A DNA stretch of 37,133 bases, from IMG/VR virus record IMGVR_UViG_2531839477_000018. The stretch is one strand, 5' to 3'. The stretch's first letter is position 1. Each line of letters opens with the position of its first letter. This document shows positions 1 to 37,133 of this stretch, in pieces. Both the position numbers and the translations under genes were made by a program. This DNA comes from a virus (lineage: Duplodnaviria; Heunggongvirae; Uroviricota; Caudoviricetes). Under the pieces are notes generated by a model. That model worked only from the letters and a program-made list of their open reading frames with translations, had not been told where the DNA came from and did not search any database.

Positions 1-1002
1 TTACCCTCTATTGTCAAAAGGGTTCAATTCAACAGCAGCCTCTAAATGACCTGGAGCAAAATGCGCATAACGCATAGTCATTTTTATATCGCTATGCCCC
101 AGTATTTTTTGCAACACAAGAATATTTCCGCCCCGCATCATAAAATGACTGGCAAACGTGTGACGTAGCACATGAGTTAATTGCCCATCAGGAAGCTCGA
201 TCTTCGCTCTCTTAATTGCAGCGTCAAAAGCCTCATAACATGGTGAAAATAGCGCTCCTCGTTTTTTGGGAAGCATAGCCTGCAATTGAGGTGAAATCGG
301 TACAGTGCGGTTCTTCTTTCCTTTAGTTTTAACAAATGTGATTCGACCGGGCAGTACTTGAGATTGCTTTAATCCTTCTGCTTCACTCCACCGAGCACCA
401 GTCGCAAGCCCAATACGGACAACAACCCCCAAATCTTTATTCCGTGACTCATCACACGCAATCAGAAGGCGTTCAATCTCATCTACATACAGAAACGCCA
501 GTTCCTTTTCTTCCTCACGAAACTTGCGAATACCAGTCAGGGGGTTTTCACCAGACCACTCCCCAAGGCGCTTCAGTTCGGCAAAAACAGCATGTAGATA
601 TGACTGCTCGCGATTAACGGTTGCTTCACTAAGTTTTTTCTTCCCCTTGGGATTCCACTCTCCTGATAACCTTCTTTCCCGATAAGTGGCAAACATATTT
701 TTGTCAAACTGAGAAGCAAATGGATCTCCCAGCCTGGAACAAATCGCCTCAAGTTTGACTTTGCGCTCTGCACCAGAGGACAAGGTTTTACCGTACATCT
801 CAAACCAACGAGCAATCAACTCAGAAAGACGAGGACCAGAACCATCTTGAAACTCGTCTCCAACTCTACTATTCATTAAACGGCGCTCATAAGAGAGCGC
901 CTCACTTTTTGTCGCAAACTGTTTACGAATGCGTTTTCCCGATGCCCCGTAGGGATAACATTCGCAAAGCCATTTACCTGATGGAATCTTACGAACCGAC
1001 AT
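1..1002 (-). CDS. int: Tyrosine recombinase / phage integrase (P2-like)
   Basis: 333-aa ORF with C-terminal catalytic region typical of tyrosine integrases (..LRHTFASHF.., ..LGHSDIKMTMRYAH..); stop codon is at window position 1-3; first gene of a P2-like gene order. Confidence 0.9.
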   Translation of the reverse strand: MSVRKIPSGKWLCECYPYGASGKRIRKQFATKSEALSYERRLMNSRVGDEFQDGSGPRLSELIARWFEMYGKTLSSGAERKVKLEAICSRLGDPFASQFDKNMFATYRERRLSGEWNPKGKKKLSEATVNREQSYLHAVFAELKRLGEWSGENPLTGIRKFREEEKELAFLYVDEIERLLIACDESRNKDLGVVVRIGLATGARWSEAEGLKQSQVLPGRITFVKTKGKKNRTVPISPQLQAMLPKKRGALFSPCYEAFDAAIKRAKIELPDGQLTHVLRHTFASHFMMRGGNILVLQKILGHSDIKMTMRYAHFAPGHLEAAVELNPFDNRG

Positions 1003-1007
1003 TTTAG

Positions 1008-1355
1008 TTACTTATCACATAAATCAAATGCAGCCTTAGTGACATCCCCCAGGCTCTTTTTTAACCCTGGGGCGGCATCATTATCTAGCCAAAATGGATT
1101 ATTGTTATCTAACGGTAACGCACCAAATGTTTTACCTTTTATTCGAGCCAAACCTGTAAGTGCATATAACTTATTATCGTCAAAATTCATCACATAAGGA
1201 TTACCATCAAGACACTGTAATTGAACCTCATCAGTATTAAATGGCCATACCCCATTGAAACTCTCACGTTCAATAGTTTTAAAAGGCATTGCGACGGCGG
1301 AAAAAGAAAACATAGATAAAAAAGTAACTAATAGTTGAACCTTTTTTACTTTCAT
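1008..1355 (-). CDS. Hypothetical secreted protein (N-terminal signal peptide), lysogeny-side cargo
   Basis: 115-aa ORF; hydrophobic N-terminus MKVKKVQLLVTFLSMFSFSAVAMP; AT-rich relative to phage structural genes; same strand as repressor and integrase. Confidence 0.5.
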   Translation of the reverse strand: MKVKKVQLLVTFLSMFSFSAVAMPFKTIERESFNGVWPFNTDEVQLQCLDGNPYVMNFDDNKLYALTGLARIKGKTFGALPLDNNNPFWLDNDAAPGLKKSLGDVTKAAFDLCDK

Positions 1356-1384
1356 ATCATTACCTCAATTTAGCTCAAGTAAGA

Positions 1385-2035
1385 TTACAAATTAAAAAAC
1401 GCCCTAGAAATGACACCGCCTACCAAAACCCCTACGCAGATAAAGAATATTATTTCTTTTGGATAAAGTCGGATTAATTCTGAAGCACGAAGTCGGACTT
1501 CTGGTAAGGTCGAACTCTCTGTGTGGCTTGATGCCGATTGTTGCTCTAACCACGACAATGCAGACTGTAACTGAGAACGAGTAAGATCGTTTAAACGTCC
1601 TGTACCGAAATTGATATGGCAATACCGCAGAAGTTTTTGTCGAAGTCCACAGTCTTCACTGTTACGTAGTAATAAACTTACAAGAGCCTTACAGGCATCA
1701 TGATCTTTACATCGCTCAAGCATTGCATGCAGAAAACTCTCCGCTGTTTTATATTGATTTACTGTCATATCATCAATACCAGCTACACCAATCTCCGCAT
1801 GTACTTTTTGCCAAATAATAAACGCTTCAGTATTGCTAGCTTCTGCAATAGCAGCAACCAAGCTATTTAGCTCCTTACGCTGAGCCTTAAGCAAAGGGCG
1901 ATCGTCATCATCATTATTCGAAGGGATTGCGATATTGACGGTATGAGAACCATCATATCGCTCTATCTGAATATTCTTTTCGTGAAAATCACGCCCAGCA
2001 ACGCGATTGTTTGAACCGTTTGAGTTGACGGCCAT
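1385..2035 (-). CDS. Hypothetical protein with C-terminal transmembrane anchor, immediately downstream of the repressor
   Basis: 216-aa ORF; C-terminal hydrophobic helix IIFFICVGVLVGGVI; N-terminus NNRVAGRDF echoes the repressor C-terminus; 15-bp gap after repressor stop. Confidence 0.5.
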   Translation of the reverse strand: MAVNSNGSNNRVAGRDFHEKNIQIERYDGSHTVNIAIPSNNDDDDRPLLKAQRKELNSLVAAIAEASNTEAFIIWQKVHAEIGVAGIDDMTVNQYKTAESFLHAMLERCKDHDACKALVSLLLRNSEDCGLRQKLLRYCHINFGTGRLNDLTRSQLQSALSWLEQQSASSHTESSTLPEVRLRASELIRLYPKEIIFFICVGVLVGGVISRAFFNL

Positions 2036-2050
2036 GTCACCTCCCTACTA

Positions 2051-2455
2051 TCACCTACCCTTAGTTTCGTTATAGTCACGACCAGCGATACGGTTATTAC
2101 CACCAGAAATATTTAACTCACGTCCTGATGGCTGAGTTTCCTTTTCACTGATCGCACCTTTTAAAGCCCCAATCACCGCGTTTTTCACATCTAACGAAGC
2201 TGCTCGAAAGCGAGTAATCAACTCCTGCTCATCATCGTTATAAGTTTCAGGTGAGTGAATTCCCAACACAACATACTGAACATCAAGGCCAAAACGAGAC
2301 AGCGCTGCCAAATACGCAGCATCAGGAAAGCTATCTCCTTTCTCATATCTAAGCTGAGTTAGCTTTTTGACTCCACCAATGTCGCTCATGGCAACTTGAC
2401 TAAGTCCCAATCTTTCCCTTTCCTCACGCAACCGCTGACCAATATCATTTTTCAT
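2051..2455 (-). CDS. HTH (XRE-type) immunity repressor, CI-like
   Basis: N-terminal helix-turn-helix IGQRLREERERLGLSQVAMSD; ORF track gives 2051-2530 but the internal Met at MKNDIGQ (2455) is the likelier start; divergent from rightward early operon. Confidence 0.7.
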   Translation of the reverse strand: MKNDIGQRLREERERLGLSQVAMSDIGGVKKLTQLRYEKGDSFPDAAYLAALSRFGLDVQYVVLGIHSPETYNDDEQELITRFRAASLDVKNAVIGALKGAISEKETQPSGRELNISGGNNRIAGRDYNETKGR

Positions 2456-2531
2456 ACAAAAAACCTTGACATGTATCTTTTTTGATACCAAAATGATTTC
2501 ACGAGCTATTAGATGATCACAATATACCACT
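2456..2531. promoter_or_regulatory. Divergent early promoter/operator region between repressor and rightward early operon
   Basis: 76-bp AT-rich spacer containing a perfect TTGACA hexamer (about 2466-2471) between divergent genes; exact -10 elements and operators not resolved by eye. Confidence 0.4.
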
Positions 2532-2738
2532 ATGAAACAAGTTCTTCACGATACCAGATCACGCATTCCGCGTAACACCGCCACAGGTCCAAGACTGGCA
2601 CTTCGGCTGTCCCTCGAGGAGCGAGCCGTCATTGATGAAATGGCAGCTAAAGAACAACGCTCATCCTCTAACATGGCGCGCATGATCTTCCTTCGCGGCC
2701 TAGAGCTAACCCAGAAAGAACAAAACAAATCTTCCTGA
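2532..2738 (+). CDS. Small early regulator (Cro/Apl-like; possible ribbon-helix-helix)
   Basis: 68-aa basic ORF, first gene of rightward operon divergent from repressor; position as in the P2/186 immunity switch. Confidence 0.45.
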   Translation: MKQVLHDTRSRIPRNTATGPRLALRLSLEERAVIDEMAAKEQRSSSNMARMIFLRGLELTQKEQNKSS

Positions 2739-2754
2739 TCAGGAGGCTAGTGGG

Positions 2755-2958
2755 ATGTCAGGTATAACCATCAATATCAATGTGAATGCCCCCTATGTAT
2801 CCCTGCAGAAATATGCAGAGATAACAGGTATCCCTCTTAATACATGCAAAAAGATGTTGGCTGACGGTCGAATTATTATCCGCCCCAAACGCGCCAAAAT
2901 GGAAAAGCCTGAAGTAAACCTTGTGGCGATGTTAAAAGACGCTTTGGCTAACAGCTAA
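2755..2958 (+). CDS. Small HTH DNA-binding protein (CII- or excisionase-like)
   Basis: 67-aa ORF with HTH-like segment VSLQKYAEITGIPLNTCKKMLADGRI; preceded by GGAGG-type RBS. Confidence 0.45.
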   Translation: MSGITININVNAPYVSLQKYAEITGIPLNTCKKMLADGRIIIRPKRAKMEKPEVNLVAMLKDALANS

Positions 2959-9174: not shown

Positions 9175-10134
9175 ATGAAAATTTGTATCGATGACGGCTC
9201 CACCAACATCAAGCTGGCATGGACTGAGAACGGCGAACGCCGCAACGCCATCAGCCCGAACAGCTTCAAGTCGGAATGGTCTGCGCCGTTCGGTGGCACG
9301 CAGCCCGCGAACTACATGCTTGATGGCGTGCGCTATGGTTTTGATCCTGTCAGCGATCGCTTTGTCCAGACGACCGACACGCAATACCAGTACAGCGATG
9401 TGAATGTCATTGCCATTCATCACGCGCTGGTCAAATCAGGCATCACGCCACAGGCGGTGGATGTGGTTGTCACCCTGCCGCTGAGCGAGTATTTCGACAC
9501 AAACGCCCAGCCGGATATGACCAACATCAACCGCAAAAAAGCGAACGTTATGCGCCCGGTGGAGTACCAGAACGGTGAGGCATTCACTATCCGTAATGTA
9601 CGGGTTATGCCTGAATCCATTCCGGCAGGCTTTAAGGCACTGGCTGACATGAGTCCGTTTGAATCCCTGCTGATTGTGGATTTGGGCGGAACCACGCTGG
9701 ATGTGGCAAAGGTTCAGGGACAACTGGCAGGTATCAGCCAGGTGTTTTGCGATCCACACGTAGGCGTTTCCCTGATGGCCGATGCCGTACTGTCGGTGAT
9801 GGCCACTAACGGTATGCGTACCAGTCACCACATCGCCAATACCATTATCGAACATCGCCATGATGAAGCCTGGCTGCGCCAGCACATCCACAATGACGCG
9901 CATTACGCCAGCCTGATGGCGGTTATTCGTGAAAAGGAAGAAACACTGAAACAACGCGTGATCCGCGCGCTGGCGGGTTTTTCGGGTTACGGGCGGGTGA
10001 TGGTTGTCGGTGGCGGGACGGAGATTGTGGCACCCGCTATCCGCGAAGCCTGCGGAGTTAATGCGACTTTCATCGCGGACGGGGTGCCACAGTTTGCTCT
10101 GGTTAATGGGCTGTACGCAATGGACAAGGAGTAA
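9175..10134 (+). CDS. parM: ParM/StbA-family actin-like segregation ATPase
   Basis: N-terminus MKICIDDGSTNIKLAW matches the ParM/StbA phosphate-1 signature (R1 ParM begins MLVFIDDGSTNIKLQW); later ..DLGGTT.. and ..VVGGG.. ASKHA motifs; 319 aa. Confidence 0.75.
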   Translation: MKICIDDGSTNIKLAWTENGERRNAISPNSFKSEWSAPFGGTQPANYMLDGVRYGFDPVSDRFVQTTDTQYQYSDVNVIAIHHALVKSGITPQAVDVVVTLPLSEYFDTNAQPDMTNINRKKANVMRPVEYQNGEAFTIRNVRVMPESIPAGFKALADMSPFESLLIVDLGGTTLDVAKVQGQLAGISQVFCDPHVGVSLMADAVLSVMATNGMRTSHHIANTIIEHRHDEAWLRQHIHNDAHYASLMAVIREKEETLKQRVIRALAGFSGYGRVMVVGGGTEIVAPAIREACGVNATFIADGVPQFALVNGLYAMDKE

Positions 10135-10513: not shown

Positions 10514-10948
10514 ATGAGCGAAATCAACTATCAGGCATTACGTGAGGCGGCACAAAACTATCAATCGACGCTGGCGTGGTATGAGGCCATCACGGATAAC
10601 CCAAATGCTGAGCAGGATTGTAGCGAAGCAGTGGCGGCGTTTAAGCGTCAAATCCGTCATCAGGAAATGGACATTATCGCCGAGCTACTGGAAGAGCTGG
10701 AAACCAAAGACAACAGGATCGCTGAACTGGAAAAAATCGCCACTGACCATGCACTGAAATTCCAGAAAGCACAGGACGCATTAAAGTATGCCGCTTTGCT
10801 GCATAGCCAGACGGCGCAACAAACAAATAATTTTTCAGTATCGCTTCCGGACATAAGCGAATATTTCATTAATGACGTATTTCAGCACCTGCGATACGAG
10901 CGGGATGTTGAAAGAGCCATCATAAAGGCTGGCGGAAAAGCATTGTGA
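10514..10948 (+). CDS. Hypothetical coiled-coil protein in the A-to-packaging variable region
   Basis: 144-aa ORF with AAGGAG RBS; acidic, helical, no recognisable domain. Confidence 0.5.
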   Translation: MSEINYQALREAAQNYQSTLAWYEAITDNPNAEQDCSEAVAAFKRQIRHQEMDIIAELLEELETKDNRIAELEKIATDHALKFQKAQDALKYAALLHSQTAQQTNNFSVSLPDISEYFINDVFQHLRYERDVERAIIKAGGKAL

Positions 10949-25459: not shown

Positions 25460-25993
25460 TCATTCAGGTTGTTCGGGAAATGTTACTGGCAGGCTGGAGG
25501 TGTCTGTAGATTCGACTTTCTGCGCATAGAGCATCCACTCGGTTAATTTTTGTTTATTCTCGTCGGAAATGATGCCCAGCCGTAGCTGTGAGTCCCATAG
25601 CTGGGTTTTATCCCTGACAAGTTGCAACAGGCTTTGCTTTTCATTCTCTGCCTGCTGCCTCTGTTCCTCCTCGGTATAAGTTCGCTTTATCACTACGCCA
25701 TCTTTGAACATCCATTTACCCGAAATATCAGCCCAGCGATTTGCTGTAATATCAGGAACCTCAACGACGCTTGCGCCTTCTGGATTAATTGCTGAAACAT
25801 CCTTTTCAATACAAATAATAACGCCGTTGTAGTCATAGACCATTTTCAACGTATCAGTCTGGAAATTCTTTTGTTCCTCATACCAGTTTTTTCCATCCTC
25901 TGTATAAAGCCATTTGATGTTAAATTGTTTCGTTAGCTGGTATTGCTCTTTTGTTTTAGGGTTGCCAGCTGTAATATTTTTTAAGTGCATCAT
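25460..25993 (-). CDS. Alternative tail fibre assembly chaperone (G'), silent orientation
   Basis: 177-aa ORF MMHLKNITAGNPKT.. paralogous to G, on the opposite strand inside the invertible segment. Confidence 0.75.
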   Translation of the reverse strand: MMHLKNITAGNPKTKEQYQLTKQFNIKWLYTEDGKNWYEEQKNFQTDTLKMVYDYNGVIICIEKDVSAINPEGASVVEVPDITANRWADISGKWMFKDGVVIKRTYTEEEQRQQAENEKQSLLQLVRDKTQLWDSQLRLGIISDENKQKLTEWMLYAQKVESTDTSSLPVTFPEQPE

Positions 25994-25995
25994 AA

Positions 25996-26940
25996 TTAAA
26001 TACTCCCCGCGTTATACCACGTTCCATTAATGCAATACTGAATTGGCCTTGCCTGTGTTGTATCAATTAATTCATCACGGTTTCCGTTAACTGAACCCGT
26101 AACGACATAACCTGACCTGTCAGACCAGCCGGGACCATTCCATGTCTGAACAGATGACAGACCGCCAAGACGAATACCTGTAATAAACCTTGAGTTACAT
26201 TCTGCCTGCGTATATGCACCAACATCTCCCGCTGATGGCTTACGTGTTGTGGTGTAAATTTCTGACCAGTCAGCTTCGAATCCGTAACCATCACGCGCTG
26301 AACGATAAAAAATACCGCCGTTCCTGTAATTCACACGGAACTGTACGGCAGGGCAACTCCCCGTATTCATATTGAAGTGGAGGATTAATGTCGATGCGCC
26401 ACCAATATTTGCGTTATAGACCCCGCTATTCCAGTTCCAGCCAACAGCTTTATCATTTCCGACAGTGCTTCCTGTTTGCCCTAAAGCAAATGCAGGCTGC
26501 TGGTTTTTCGTGTTGTAGTCTCGTCGCCAGCCAGGAGCATAAGCATCACCATGATTAATATAAGTGAATTGAGCGTTAGTGATTCCGCCACCGCTGGACG
26601 TGCTCGGCGTGGTAACACGTATGGTCATTGCGCCGCGAGTGCCAATAACTTCCACCACAGCACCTGCAAGACAAATATTTCCGCAACCTGTATCTGTAAT
26701 GACCTTATTATTTGCATAAGCCCATGAGCCTTTGCACATCCAGTAAGGATGGTTAAATGCCCCCTGACTCTCCAGCCACGAAATAAATTGCACAGTTGTC
26801 CAGACCTGACTATCGCCACCAATATCCACCCATGCGCTATATGCGCGACAGGCCCCAATATTTTTGGTGAAGGTATCTTTTCCCGGAATATCTGCGCCGT
26901 TCTGGTTTTTCTGTAATGCGCCAGAAGCCTGATTTACCGT
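25996..26940 (-). CDS. Alternative tail fibre variable C-terminal segment (H'), promoterless, fused to the constant part only after inversion
   Basis: Minus-strand frame is open from the right crossover site and stays in frame with the H constant region across the site (..[14 protein letters not shown]..); ORF-track 25996-26829 is its Met-initiated tail. Confidence 0.65.
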   Translation of the reverse strand, partial: TVNQASGALQKNQNGADIPGKDTFTKNIGACRAYSAWVDIGGDSQVWTTVQFISWLESQGAFNHPYWMCKGSWAYANNKVITDTGCGNICLAGAVVEVIGTRGAMTIRVTTPSTSSGGGITNAQFTYINHGDAYAPGWRRDYNTKNQQPAFALGQTGSTVGNDKAVGWNWNSGVYNANIGGASTLILHFNMNTGSCPAVQFRVNYRNGGIFYRSARDGYGFEADWSEIYTTTRKPSAGDVGAYTQAECNSRFITGIRLGGLSSVQTWNGPGWSDRSGYVVTGSVNGNRDELIDTTQARPIQYCINGTWYNAGSI

Positions 26941-26966: not shown

Positions 26967-27020
26967 TGGCCGTTTCCGGCCTGCATGGCATGATTTGCGC
27001 TTTTGGACGGGAGATTCAGC

Positions 27021-27608
27021 GTGCTGATTGGCTATGTAAGGGTATCAACAAATGACCAGAATACAGACCTGCAACGAAACGCTCTTGTTTGTGCAGGATG
27101 TGAACAAATATTTGAAGATAAATTAAGCGGGACAAAGACAGACCGACCGGGATTAAAACGCGCTTTAAAGCGCCTTCAAAAAGGTGACACGCTGGTTGTC
27201 TGGAAACTGGATCGCCTCGGGCGAAGCATGAAACATCTGATTTCTCTCGTCGGGGAACTACGGGAGCGAGGGATTAATTTTCGCAGTCTGACCGACAGCA
27301 TAGATACATCTTCTCCAATGGGGCGTTTTTTCTTCCACATGATGGGTGCCCTGGCTGAAATGGAACGTGAATTAATTGTTGAACGTACACTGGCCGGACT
27401 GGCGGCAGCGCGCGCACGGGGGCGCACAAGCGGACGTCGACCGAAGCTGACAAAAGAACAGCATGAGCAAATAGCAAGGCTGATCAAAAACGGGCACGAC
27501 AGAAAACAACTGGCAATAATTTACGGCATTGGTATATCGACGATTTATCGTTACCACCCCGCAGGAGAATCAAGCGGAACAATTGAGAAGAGTCAGGAAA
27601 CAAAATAA
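27021..27608 (+). CDS. Serine site-specific DNA invertase (Pin/Gin/Hin/Cin family)
   Basis: Probable GTG start giving ..LIGYVRVSTNDQNTDLQRNAL.. (catalytic Ser in VRVST); closely resembles E. coli e14 Pin as recalled; C-terminal HTH; ORF-track start 27003 is an upstream in-frame ATG. Confidence 0.9.
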   Translation: MLIGYVRVSTNDQNTDLQRNALVCAGCEQIFEDKLSGTKTDRPGLKRALKRLQKGDTLVVWKLDRLGRSMKHLISLVGELRERGINFRSLTDSIDTSSPMGRFFFHMMGALAEMERELIVERTLAGLAAARARGRTSGRRPKLTKEQHEQIARLIKNGHDRKQLAIIYGIGISTIYRYHPAGESSGTIEKSQETK

Positions 27609-36584: not shown

Positions 36585-37133
36585 TCACTGATCAAGCAAA
36601 TCTGCACGCGCAGCGCTCAAATATTGCAACATTGACCACAGAGTCAGTACCGCAGCCACAAAGAAAAGTGCAATACCGGCGTACTCAACCCAAATGTTCG
36701 GACGCCACAGCAGCCAGGCCAACGCCACCATCTGGGCAGTGGTTTTCACTTTCCCAATCCAGGAGACAGCCACGCTACTGCGTTTACCCAACTCCGCCAT
36801 CCATTCGCGTAGCGCAGAAATAATAATTTCACGGGCGATCATCGTTGCCGCCGGTAGGGTCACCCACCAGCTGTGATAATGCTCGGTTACCAGCACCATG
36901 GCGATAGCCACGAGAACTTTATCTGCTACAGGGTCAAGGAAAGCACCAAACCGGGTACTCTGGTTCCAGCGGCGTGCCAGAAAACCATCGAACCAGTCAG
37001 TCACCGCCGCGACGCAGAAAATGAGCGCGGCGGCAAACGGCGACCAGGTGACAGGCAGATAAAAGACCAATACAAAGAATGGGATAAGGATGACACGGAA
37101 CAGTGTAAGCAACGTAGGGATATTAAATTGCAT
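36585..37133 (-). CDS. pgsA: CDP-diacylglycerol--glycerol-3-phosphate 3-phosphatidyltransferase
   Basis: 182-aa [30 protein letters not shown].. with the CDP-alcohol phosphotransferase motif D-G-x2-A-R...D-x3-D (..[19 protein letters not shown]..); conserved E. coli neighbourhood pgsA-glyW-cysT-leuZ; start is the last codon of the window. Confidence 0.95.

Follow-up and report, generated by a model that had tools for sequence, protein, structure and literature searches.

The stretch of DNA described here (IMG/VR virus record IMGVR_UViG_2531839477_000018; the whole 37,133 nucleotides [nt] that were analysed are called the window) is a P2-like prophage of Escherichia coli, the first 3.4 kb of which is 97% identical to Escherichia phage 520873 (Peduoviridae, Xuanwuvirus). 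The open reading frame (ORF) map of its left end gives, on the minus strand, a prophage repressor gene (2051..2455; 134 amino acids [aa]), a gene for a 216-aa membrane protein (1385..2035), a gene for a 115-aa secreted protein (1008..1355) and a P2-type tyrosine integrase gene (1..1002; Int_N 5e-32, Phage_integrase 2.5e-22), the last of the leftward operon. The gaps are 15 nt between the repressor and 216-aa genes, 29 nt between the two middle genes and 5 nt from the stop codon of the 115-aa gene to the ATG of the integrase. The repressor ORF spans 2530..2051, and its start was taken as the ATG at 2455 (MKNDIGQ, 134 aa), following the RefSeq annotation. Shine-Dalgarno sequences lie 5' of the 216-aa gene (GGGAGGTGAC) and of the 115-aa gene (TTGAGGTAATGAT), and a promoter and terminator scan found no terminator-like site on the minus strand from repressor to integrase. 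The same scan returned no leftward promoter, with promoter-like sites fewer than expected by chance, and the promoter of the operon was thus not located. An earlier note on this DNA, made from the letters alone, had described the two middle genes as a pair of cargo genes co-oriented with the repressor and belonging to no family that could be named. The layout is as that note described, and both genes are real, judging from their profile matches (phrog_5825 4e-103 over the full length of the 216-aa protein; phrog_2950 8.7e-40 for the 115-aa protein) and from the presence of the 1.5-kb segment in 521 of 5,426 complete Escherichia coli genomes (∼10%), mostly at 99% identity or more. From their tight packing on the repressor strand it is reasonable to infer that both are expressed in the lysogen. 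The two genes differ in character: the 115-aa gene behaves as cargo, and the 216-aa gene is probably a fixed companion of this repressor type that shares a terminal sequence motif with it.

The repressor, which has weak HTH_31/HTH_3 matches and belongs to phrog_8, comprises an XRE-type helix-turn-helix (residues 1-66), two further helices (74-106) and a disordered tail (107-134). Its structure model is confident over residues 1-106 and has a predicted local distance difference test score (pLDDT) below 50 for residues 107-134; the modelled fold resembles P22 c2 and SinR, and the helix-turn-helix shows a weak match to the RstR family. The tail carries the motif GGNNRIAGRDYNE (residues 118-130; 2066..2104, minus strand) followed by the basic end TKGR, so that the protein finishes in ...LNISGGNNRIAGRDYNETKGR. 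A second copy of the motif, GSNNRVAGRDFHE, occupies residues 7-19 of the next protein (1979..2017, minus strand), whose N-terminus reads MAVNSNGSNNRVAGRDFHEKNI. The modelled 216-aa protein starts with a disordered segment (residues 1-44; pLDDT 50-59 over residues 1-40), which contains the motif, and continues with a putatively cytoplasmic, all-helical domain (residues 45-175; 1511..1903; pLDDT ∼98), a linker and a transmembrane anchor (residues 192-215; 1391..1462). Hydropathy and the model agree on the single C-terminal helix that had been proposed for this protein, its sole hydrophobic stretch lying at ∼194-214 with Kyte-Doolittle values up to 2.36, and most full-length members of the family likewise have their most hydrophobic stretch 0-3 residues from the C-terminus. 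The helical domain belongs to the Flk_N family (PF27202), discussed below.

The repressor tail aligns with residues 3-19 of the 216-aa protein at a BLASTP E value of 2e-5, and the two copies, both within disordered termini in the structure models, are the only two hits when all six reading frames of the window are searched for the motif. In a comparison of 18 diverse pairs, the columns G118, R122, A124, G125, R126, D127 and E130 are invariant, and the adjoining Ser/Ala-rich linker varies. Nine residues are identical between the two copies in the window and five of these nine use differing codons, indicating that it is the protein sequence that is conserved and not the DNA; an origin of the motif as a DNA-level repeat can be dismissed for this reason. 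Read-through from repressor to membrane protein was also considered, the two genes being in frame across 2036-2053. Three in-frame stop codons (TGA TAG TAG) precede GGAGGTGAC and the ATG at that point, and the corresponding gap in other loci ranges from 8 to 25 nt and is often not a multiple of three; a read-through fusion is thereby made unlikely.

Loci with relatives of the 216-aa protein were compiled as one genome per species together with viral contigs. In every one of 93 P2-like loci, a repressor bearing the motif within its last 25 residues lies 8-25 nt upstream of an intact Flk_N gene. The same accompaniment was found in all six distinct repressor-partner pairs examined from Mu-like prophages, which were recognised as Mu-like from a transposase at one flank and holin or Mu gp27 genes at the opposite one; the sources of these pairs are one genome each of Pectobacterium and Gilliamella, contigs with Pseudomonas aeruginosa-type repressors and metagenomes. 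The same tail and partner go with visibly different helix-turn-helix N-terminal sequences, which would represent different immunity types. A Salmonella enterica locus (L117, 767-2801) has three tandem genes for repressor-type helix-turn-helix proteins (141, 124 and 121 aa) before a single Flk_N gene; two of the three proteins retain the tail motif and the tail of the third has decayed (…ISDARNISDTGNNENK).

The motif differs between lineages in step in the two proteins. Pairs that we refer to as class A carry NRxAGRDY, and other lineages carry variants of QxFxGxVGQ..GDIxN in both proteins. Among Mu-like pairs, for example, a metagenomic repressor ending in NQTFHGSVGQSVAGSITN is followed by a partner beginning with SQDFHGEVGQAAGGDINN (L112), the Pectobacterium repressor tail QIFNGDISGQFAGNQIIN by the partner N-terminus QEFNGTAQGQFSSRDIIN (L106) and a second metagenomic tail, QQFNGPVGTVTTGDVVN, by QQFHGAVEQVAAGDIKN (L105). 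The scores of cognate pairs are 33-58, and the maxima with shuffled sequences 32-42; in five of seven cases the pair scores above the maximum, the exceptions being L104 and L108/109. In a 12 × 12 matrix of tails against N-termini, scores within a sequence's own class are 33-79, and those of class A against the other classes are 11-31.

Loss and replacement of the partner follow the motif as well. P0316 (239 contigs), a related P2-like repressor of E. coli, is without the tail; no Flk_N gene adjoins its gene, which is followed directly by cargo genes. In a Pinirhizobacter locus (L022) and a Pectobacterium locus (L023), the gene downstream of the repressor encodes not a Flk_N protein but a zinc-ribbon protein with two C-terminal membrane helices, and the motif with which its own upstream repressor ends stands at the start of this protein too. 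Here the partner has been swapped while motif and anchor have been kept, so that a matched motif and a membrane anchor are the constant features of the arrangement.

These observations bear on the proposal, put forward in the earlier note, that both middle genes are independent lysogen-expressed cargo, in which case the 216-aa protein would block DNA entry or abort infection in the manner of SieB, Rex or Imm and the shared motif would be meaningless. Gene placement and orientation are indeed like those of lambda rexAB or sieB, the 216-aa protein is membrane anchored, a family labelled "moron ... membrane protein" (phrog_6521) matches its residues 5-110, and P2-like phages have a minor defence hotspot between integrase and primase (PMC13586616). 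For the 216-aa gene this reading leaves unexplained both the co-varying motif and the joint loss of motif and partner; the gene is fixed in two phage families, including all of the 93 P2-like loci, and the variable slot comes after it. Neither the 216-aa nor the 115-aa protein matches any PADLOC-DB 2.0 defence model at E values up to 0.1. We regard independent cargo as an unlikely account of the gene. A related comparison is with Glo, which is periplasmic, is encoded by the P2-like Vibrio phage K139 and has been described as the K139-family immunity gene (PMC4870250). Glo, lambda rexAB and sieB are, like the genes of the window, accessory genes by the immunity region that are (or, in the window, would be) expressed in the lysogen, and no sequence similarity between them and the window proteins was detected. 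We know of no exclusion phenotype for the window proteins.

Profile searches supply the family name that the earlier note lacked for the 216-aa protein: PF27202 (Flk_N) is the precomputed annotation on all its close homologues. The model for Flk itself (PRK10715) matches residues 37-166 at E 8.6e-16, over profile positions 20-149 of 339, with a score of 58.1 bits against a cutoff of 353; the protein thus falls far short of the equivalog threshold for Flk proper and is not a Flk orthologue, and its length is below the ∼330 aa expected of one. An exhaustive search of 1.84 billion representative proteins returned only 92 relatives, in which two groups stand out, one phage-type with lengths of 180-230 aa and the other made up of host Flk proteins of 330-410 aa. 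Flk of Salmonella and E. coli (PRK10715, PF27202) likewise has a cytoplasmic Flk_N domain, a linker and a single C-terminal anchor. It differs from the window protein in being 330-410 aa long, in starting with MQPxSGPG and in having no NRxAGRDY motif, whereas the window protein is prophage encoded and always follows a repressor. The host proteins in our set (P0160-P0204) share the Flk_N domain and tail anchor and have no N-terminal motif; descent could run in either direction, with Flk a domesticated relative of the phage protein or the phage protein an offshoot of Flk.

That shared architecture, together with database records naming some homologues "flagella biosynthesis regulator," raises the question of whether the 216-aa protein mimics host Flk and alters flagellar type III export or assembly as a form of lysogenic conversion, for example against flagellum-dependent phages. 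We consider this highly improbable, given the shortfall against the Flk model, a length ∼120 residues below that of Flk, an N-terminal motif foreign to the host protein and the link to the repressor, which such mimicry would leave unexplained. No flagellar genes lie near the 216-aa gene, the context of which is that of a prophage.

A protein search of 50,697 phage records for the 216-aa gene returned only phage 520873 and weak Ralstonia matches. The match in phage 520873 is broken into three pieces and the gene is unannotated; in this record (L001; NC_049344, 1039-3485) the integrase is annotated as two fragments and the 115-aa gene is unannotated as well, and the record probably contains frameshift errors. 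In two loci from Symbiopectobacterium, which are insect symbionts (L012 and L020), the Flk_N gene is in two ORFs and the integrase is fragmented, with the repressor tail motif intact, consistent with decaying prophages.

Some family members also resemble phage anti-repressors in part. Of 37 members, 21 match phrog_245, named "anti-repressor Ant" (best E 2.3e-8), and nine match phrog_2127. The Ant matches are limited to a helical module of ∼60 residues (∼37-106, aligned with profile positions ∼146-229), and the family has no full-length similarity to Ant that would take in its Bro-N/KilA-type N-terminal domain. In addition, phrog_17822, a profile of 267 positions, is matched at positions 5-103 by the window repressor and at 136-198 by one Flk_N member (P0143); this family may include a natural fusion of repressor and Flk_N protein, as these weak matches faintly suggest.

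Taken with the fixed companionship, the co-varying terminal motif favours a role for the 216-aa protein in the immunity switch over that of an independent exclusion or abortive-infection gene. We propose, with a probability of about one half, that it is a membrane-tethered regulatory partner of the repressor that acts through motif-to-motif pairing. The protein would be tail anchored in the inner membrane with its Flk_N domain and ∼44-residue disordered N-terminus toward the cytoplasm, where GSNNRVAGRDFHE would pair directly with its near-identical counterpart at the tip of the disordered repressor tail. Through this pairing the membrane protein may capture the repressor, hold it or alter its assembly state, and the lysogeny switch would thereby be coupled to something sensed at the inner membrane. 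The partner may either weaken or stabilise repression. The physical interaction, the regulatory effect and expression in the lysogen are each predicted from sequence.

Several points weigh against this proposal. The 93 P2-like loci form a redundant set, about half of them being near-identical E. coli copies. The tails of L105 and L110 score equally well against class D N-termini, and because the finer classes B to E cross-match in part, co-variation is firm only between class A and the rest and partial among these finer classes. A constitutive antagonist encoded beside its target would need an activating signal. To our knowledge, no biochemical activity has been assigned to Flk_N. A profile search of PDB sequences with the 216-aa protein gave no significant match, its fold has no informative solved relative, and the likeness to anti-repressors comes down to the ∼60-residue helical module, the PHROG names being annotations and not tests. 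Lastly, the motif common to both proteins could be a docking site for a third factor.

Such a factor might be a host protease, chaperone or adaptor, with the motif serving as docking site or degradation signal and the membrane protein, as a decoy or competitor, either protecting the repressor or titrating it, in the way that CIII of lambda shields CII from FtsH, a membrane protease. Phage regulators are well known to be subject to regulated proteolysis, both motif copies are predicted to lie in exposed disordered termini, and a decoy at the inner membrane would stand where FtsH acts. Against this, the motif diverges strongly between lineages and yet is matched within each pair, which fits direct pairing better than a conserved host factor; the six-frame search found no third motif-bearing protein encoded in the window; and one copy is C-terminal and the other N-terminal, which is unusual for a terminus-specific degradation signal. 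A third factor therefore seems to us doubtful.

A regulatory partner of this kind would combine features of two known arrangements, being co-transcribed with its target like ImmA with ImmR and copying a terminal segment of the repressor like SinI with SinR. In SinI/SinR of Bacillus subtilis the product of an adjacent gene controls an XRE-type repressor and copies its C-terminal interaction segment, and the SinR-SinI complex (1b0n) ranks near the top of the structures matched by the repressor model. The shared segment of SinR, in contrast, is a folded helical hook and not a disordered terminal motif, and SinI is small, soluble and without a membrane anchor; the two systems are unrelated in sequence. 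ImmR and ImmA, an XRE repressor and its regulator encoded in one operon in ICEBs1 and many prophages, resemble the present pair in the joint placement of repressor and proposed regulator in the lysogenic operon. ImmA cleaves its repressor as a soluble metalloprotease, whereas the 216-aa protein is predicted to be membrane bound and has no protease domain. RstC acting on RstR (CTXphi) and Qtip acting on cI (VP882) are cases in which a phage repressor is turned off by being drawn into an assembly and not by cleavage. RstC and Qtip differ from the 216-aa protein in being small, soluble and separately regulated, and we know of no terminal motif that they share with their targets.

A further comparison is with amyloid-signalling pairs (fungal HET-S/NWD2, bacterial BASS1-10, and Bab/Agp of BASS11), in which the motif likewise sits at the C-terminus of the upstream product and the N-terminus of the downstream product, encoded on the same strand. 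Amyloid-signalling motifs also vary between lineages, and Bab/Agp works in an E. coli prophage hotspot for defence. In those systems a large sensor (NLR/TPR) activates a membrane-damaging effector, whereas here the partners are a repressor and a small membrane protein. The pair in the window accordingly shows the first hallmark of BASS/FASS systems, the same motif at the C- and N-termini of adjacent same-strand products, and not the second, a sensor (NLR, STAND or TPR) with an effector (Bell, HeLo or TIR), its components being an XRE repressor and a membrane protein of Flk_N or zinc-ribbon type. Charged residues abound in the class A motif, and the likeness to amyloid motifs is a lead, not a demonstration. 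By analogy, repressor tail and partner N-terminus might form a templating pair like Bab/Agp or HET-S/NWD2, although we think the odds are well against it. Clustering or conformational change of the membrane protein, caused, for example, by envelope damage or a superinfecting phage, would then nucleate an ordered assembly, which would recruit repressor tails and switch the prophage.

The 115-aa gene is a different matter. Its product matches PF10709 (DUF2511) at 28.4 bits against a cutoff of 21, over positions 2-87 of the 87-position profile, and the sequence of the E. coli YebY crystal structure (PDB 7n0j) at E 0.0027, with Trp37, Cys48 and Cys113 aligned. It thus also has a nameable family. 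The predicted Sec signal peptide noted earlier (residues 1-22; 1290..1355, minus strand) is borne out by hydropathy and by the -3/-1 rule as read from the sequence, in which MKVKK and a hydrophobic core are followed by AVA|M at residues 20-23. YebY is periplasmic, has two conserved cysteines linked by a disulfide and adopts a fold like that of the lantibiotic-binding MlbQ (PMC8689200). YebY and MlbQ, the latter a lantibiotic self-resistance protein of the same DUF2511 family, resemble the 115-aa protein in their signal peptide, ∼90 mature residues and conserved Trp37, Cys48 and Cys113. They differ in setting: yebY belongs to the yobA-yebZ-yebY copper operon, and the window gene is prophage cargo, lying between a Flk_N gene and a phage integrase. 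The copper-operon context is thus absent here, and membership of the family does not need it. That yebY homologues in Enterobacteriaceae lie with a recombinase on one side and a phage CI-type repressor on the other has been noted before, with no function given (PMC8689200). Close homologues of the 115-aa protein form a small group within Enterobacterales, and those of Klebsiella and Citrobacter occupy the same position.

In related prophages the slot between the Flk_N gene and the integrase holds 0-3 genes from at least 10 unrelated families, identifying the 115-aa gene as genuine swappable cargo. Besides DUF2511, these families include a 288-295-aa BRCT protein with a WYL-like region, a 292-298-aa TerB-like protein whose C-terminal region matches the PADLOC candidate PDC-S48 (E 3e-9), an acidic protein of ∼100 aa, a protein of ∼120 aa with paired cysteine motifs, a tail-anchored coiled-coil protein and several others. 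It is this slot, and not the position of the 216-aa gene, that varies in the manner of a hotspot. Base composition points the same way. The region is AT-rich relative to the structural genes, as had been observed (guanine plus cytosine [GC] content 0.356-0.451 vs 0.549), and only the 115-aa gene, with the lowest GC of the operon (0.356), departs from the adjoining genes, the 216-aa, repressor and integrase genes standing at 0.413, 0.440 and 0.451. The idea of a cargo pair accordingly holds for the 115-aa gene and probably not for the 216-aa gene, which is a fixed companion with a shared, co-varying motif. We infer that the 115-aa protein is a periplasmic, disulfide-stabilised cargo protein of YebY/MlbQ fold made in the lysogen; its most likely role would be periplasmic binding of a small ligand or peptide for lysogenic conversion or exclusion. 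In a Mu-like prophage from a metagenome (L105, 3990-4862), a 290-aa TIR-domain protein is encoded two genes past the repressor/Flk_N pair, suggesting that Mu-like phages, too, may carry defence-type cargo behind the pair.

To the right of the repressor gene lies a switch region with divergent early genes (2456..2958; phrog_3431 1e-28, phrog_575 1.2e-27). It contains a rightward promoter-like site from the promoter scan (2466-2494), a gene for a 68-aa Arc-like ribbon-helix-helix protein that opens the rightward early operon (2532-2738, plus strand; phrog_3431 1e-28) and a Cox-like excisionase/repressor gene (2755-2958, plus strand; phrog_575 1.2e-27). The Arc-like ORF is unannotated in the RefSeq record examined, in which a 45-aa ORF on the opposite strand is called instead (L002, 5544-5681).

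Elsewhere in the window, genes for a ParM/StbA actin-like segregation protein (9175-10134, plus strand; E 1e-81) and an Ead/Ea22-like protein (10514-10948, plus strand) lie between the replication and portal genes, where P2-like phages have their main accessory hotspot; within an integrated prophage, a plasmid-partition ATPase is unusual. A serine invertase gene (Resolvase plus HTH_7; 27003-27608, plus strand) adjoins minus-strand copies of a tail-fibre C-terminal gene and an assembly gene (25460-26829), and the segment 25460-27608 has the appearance of a Mu Gin- or P1 Cin-type invertible cassette for host range. The window ends, a long way from the integrase, in a gene for a CDP-alcohol phosphatidyltransferase (36585-37133, minus strand), probably host pgsA. 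In relatives from Klebsiella and Citrobacter (L003, L119 and L122), a CDP-alcohol phosphatidyltransferase gene is found directly beyond the integrase.

Both protein families were already named and the phage context of yebY homologues is in print; the pairing of repressor and Flk_N protein, supported here by comparative evidence, appears to be new. Literature searches on the RefSeq protein accessions, on Flk together with prophages and on membrane-anchored anti-repressors found nothing that describes this module, and no paper was found on repressor/Flk_N pairing or on the sharing of a terminal motif with a transcriptional repressor. The module is common, occurring in ∼10% of complete E. coli genomes and also in Klebsiella, Salmonella, Pectobacterium, Gilliamella and Pseudomonas. 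It may point to a phage origin of host Flk, and accessory or defence genes could be sought in the slot immediately before the integrase gene. The exit from lysogeny is poorly understood in those P2-like and many Mu-like prophages that have no self-cleaving repressor, and a conserved membrane protein that copies the repressor tail would link the cell envelope directly to the switch. If the pairing is as proposed, the principle of the same motif on two neighbours would extend from cell-death systems to the control of transcription, and if templating were also true, P2-like and Mu-like phages would have in common a self-propagating, membrane-triggered lysogeny switch.

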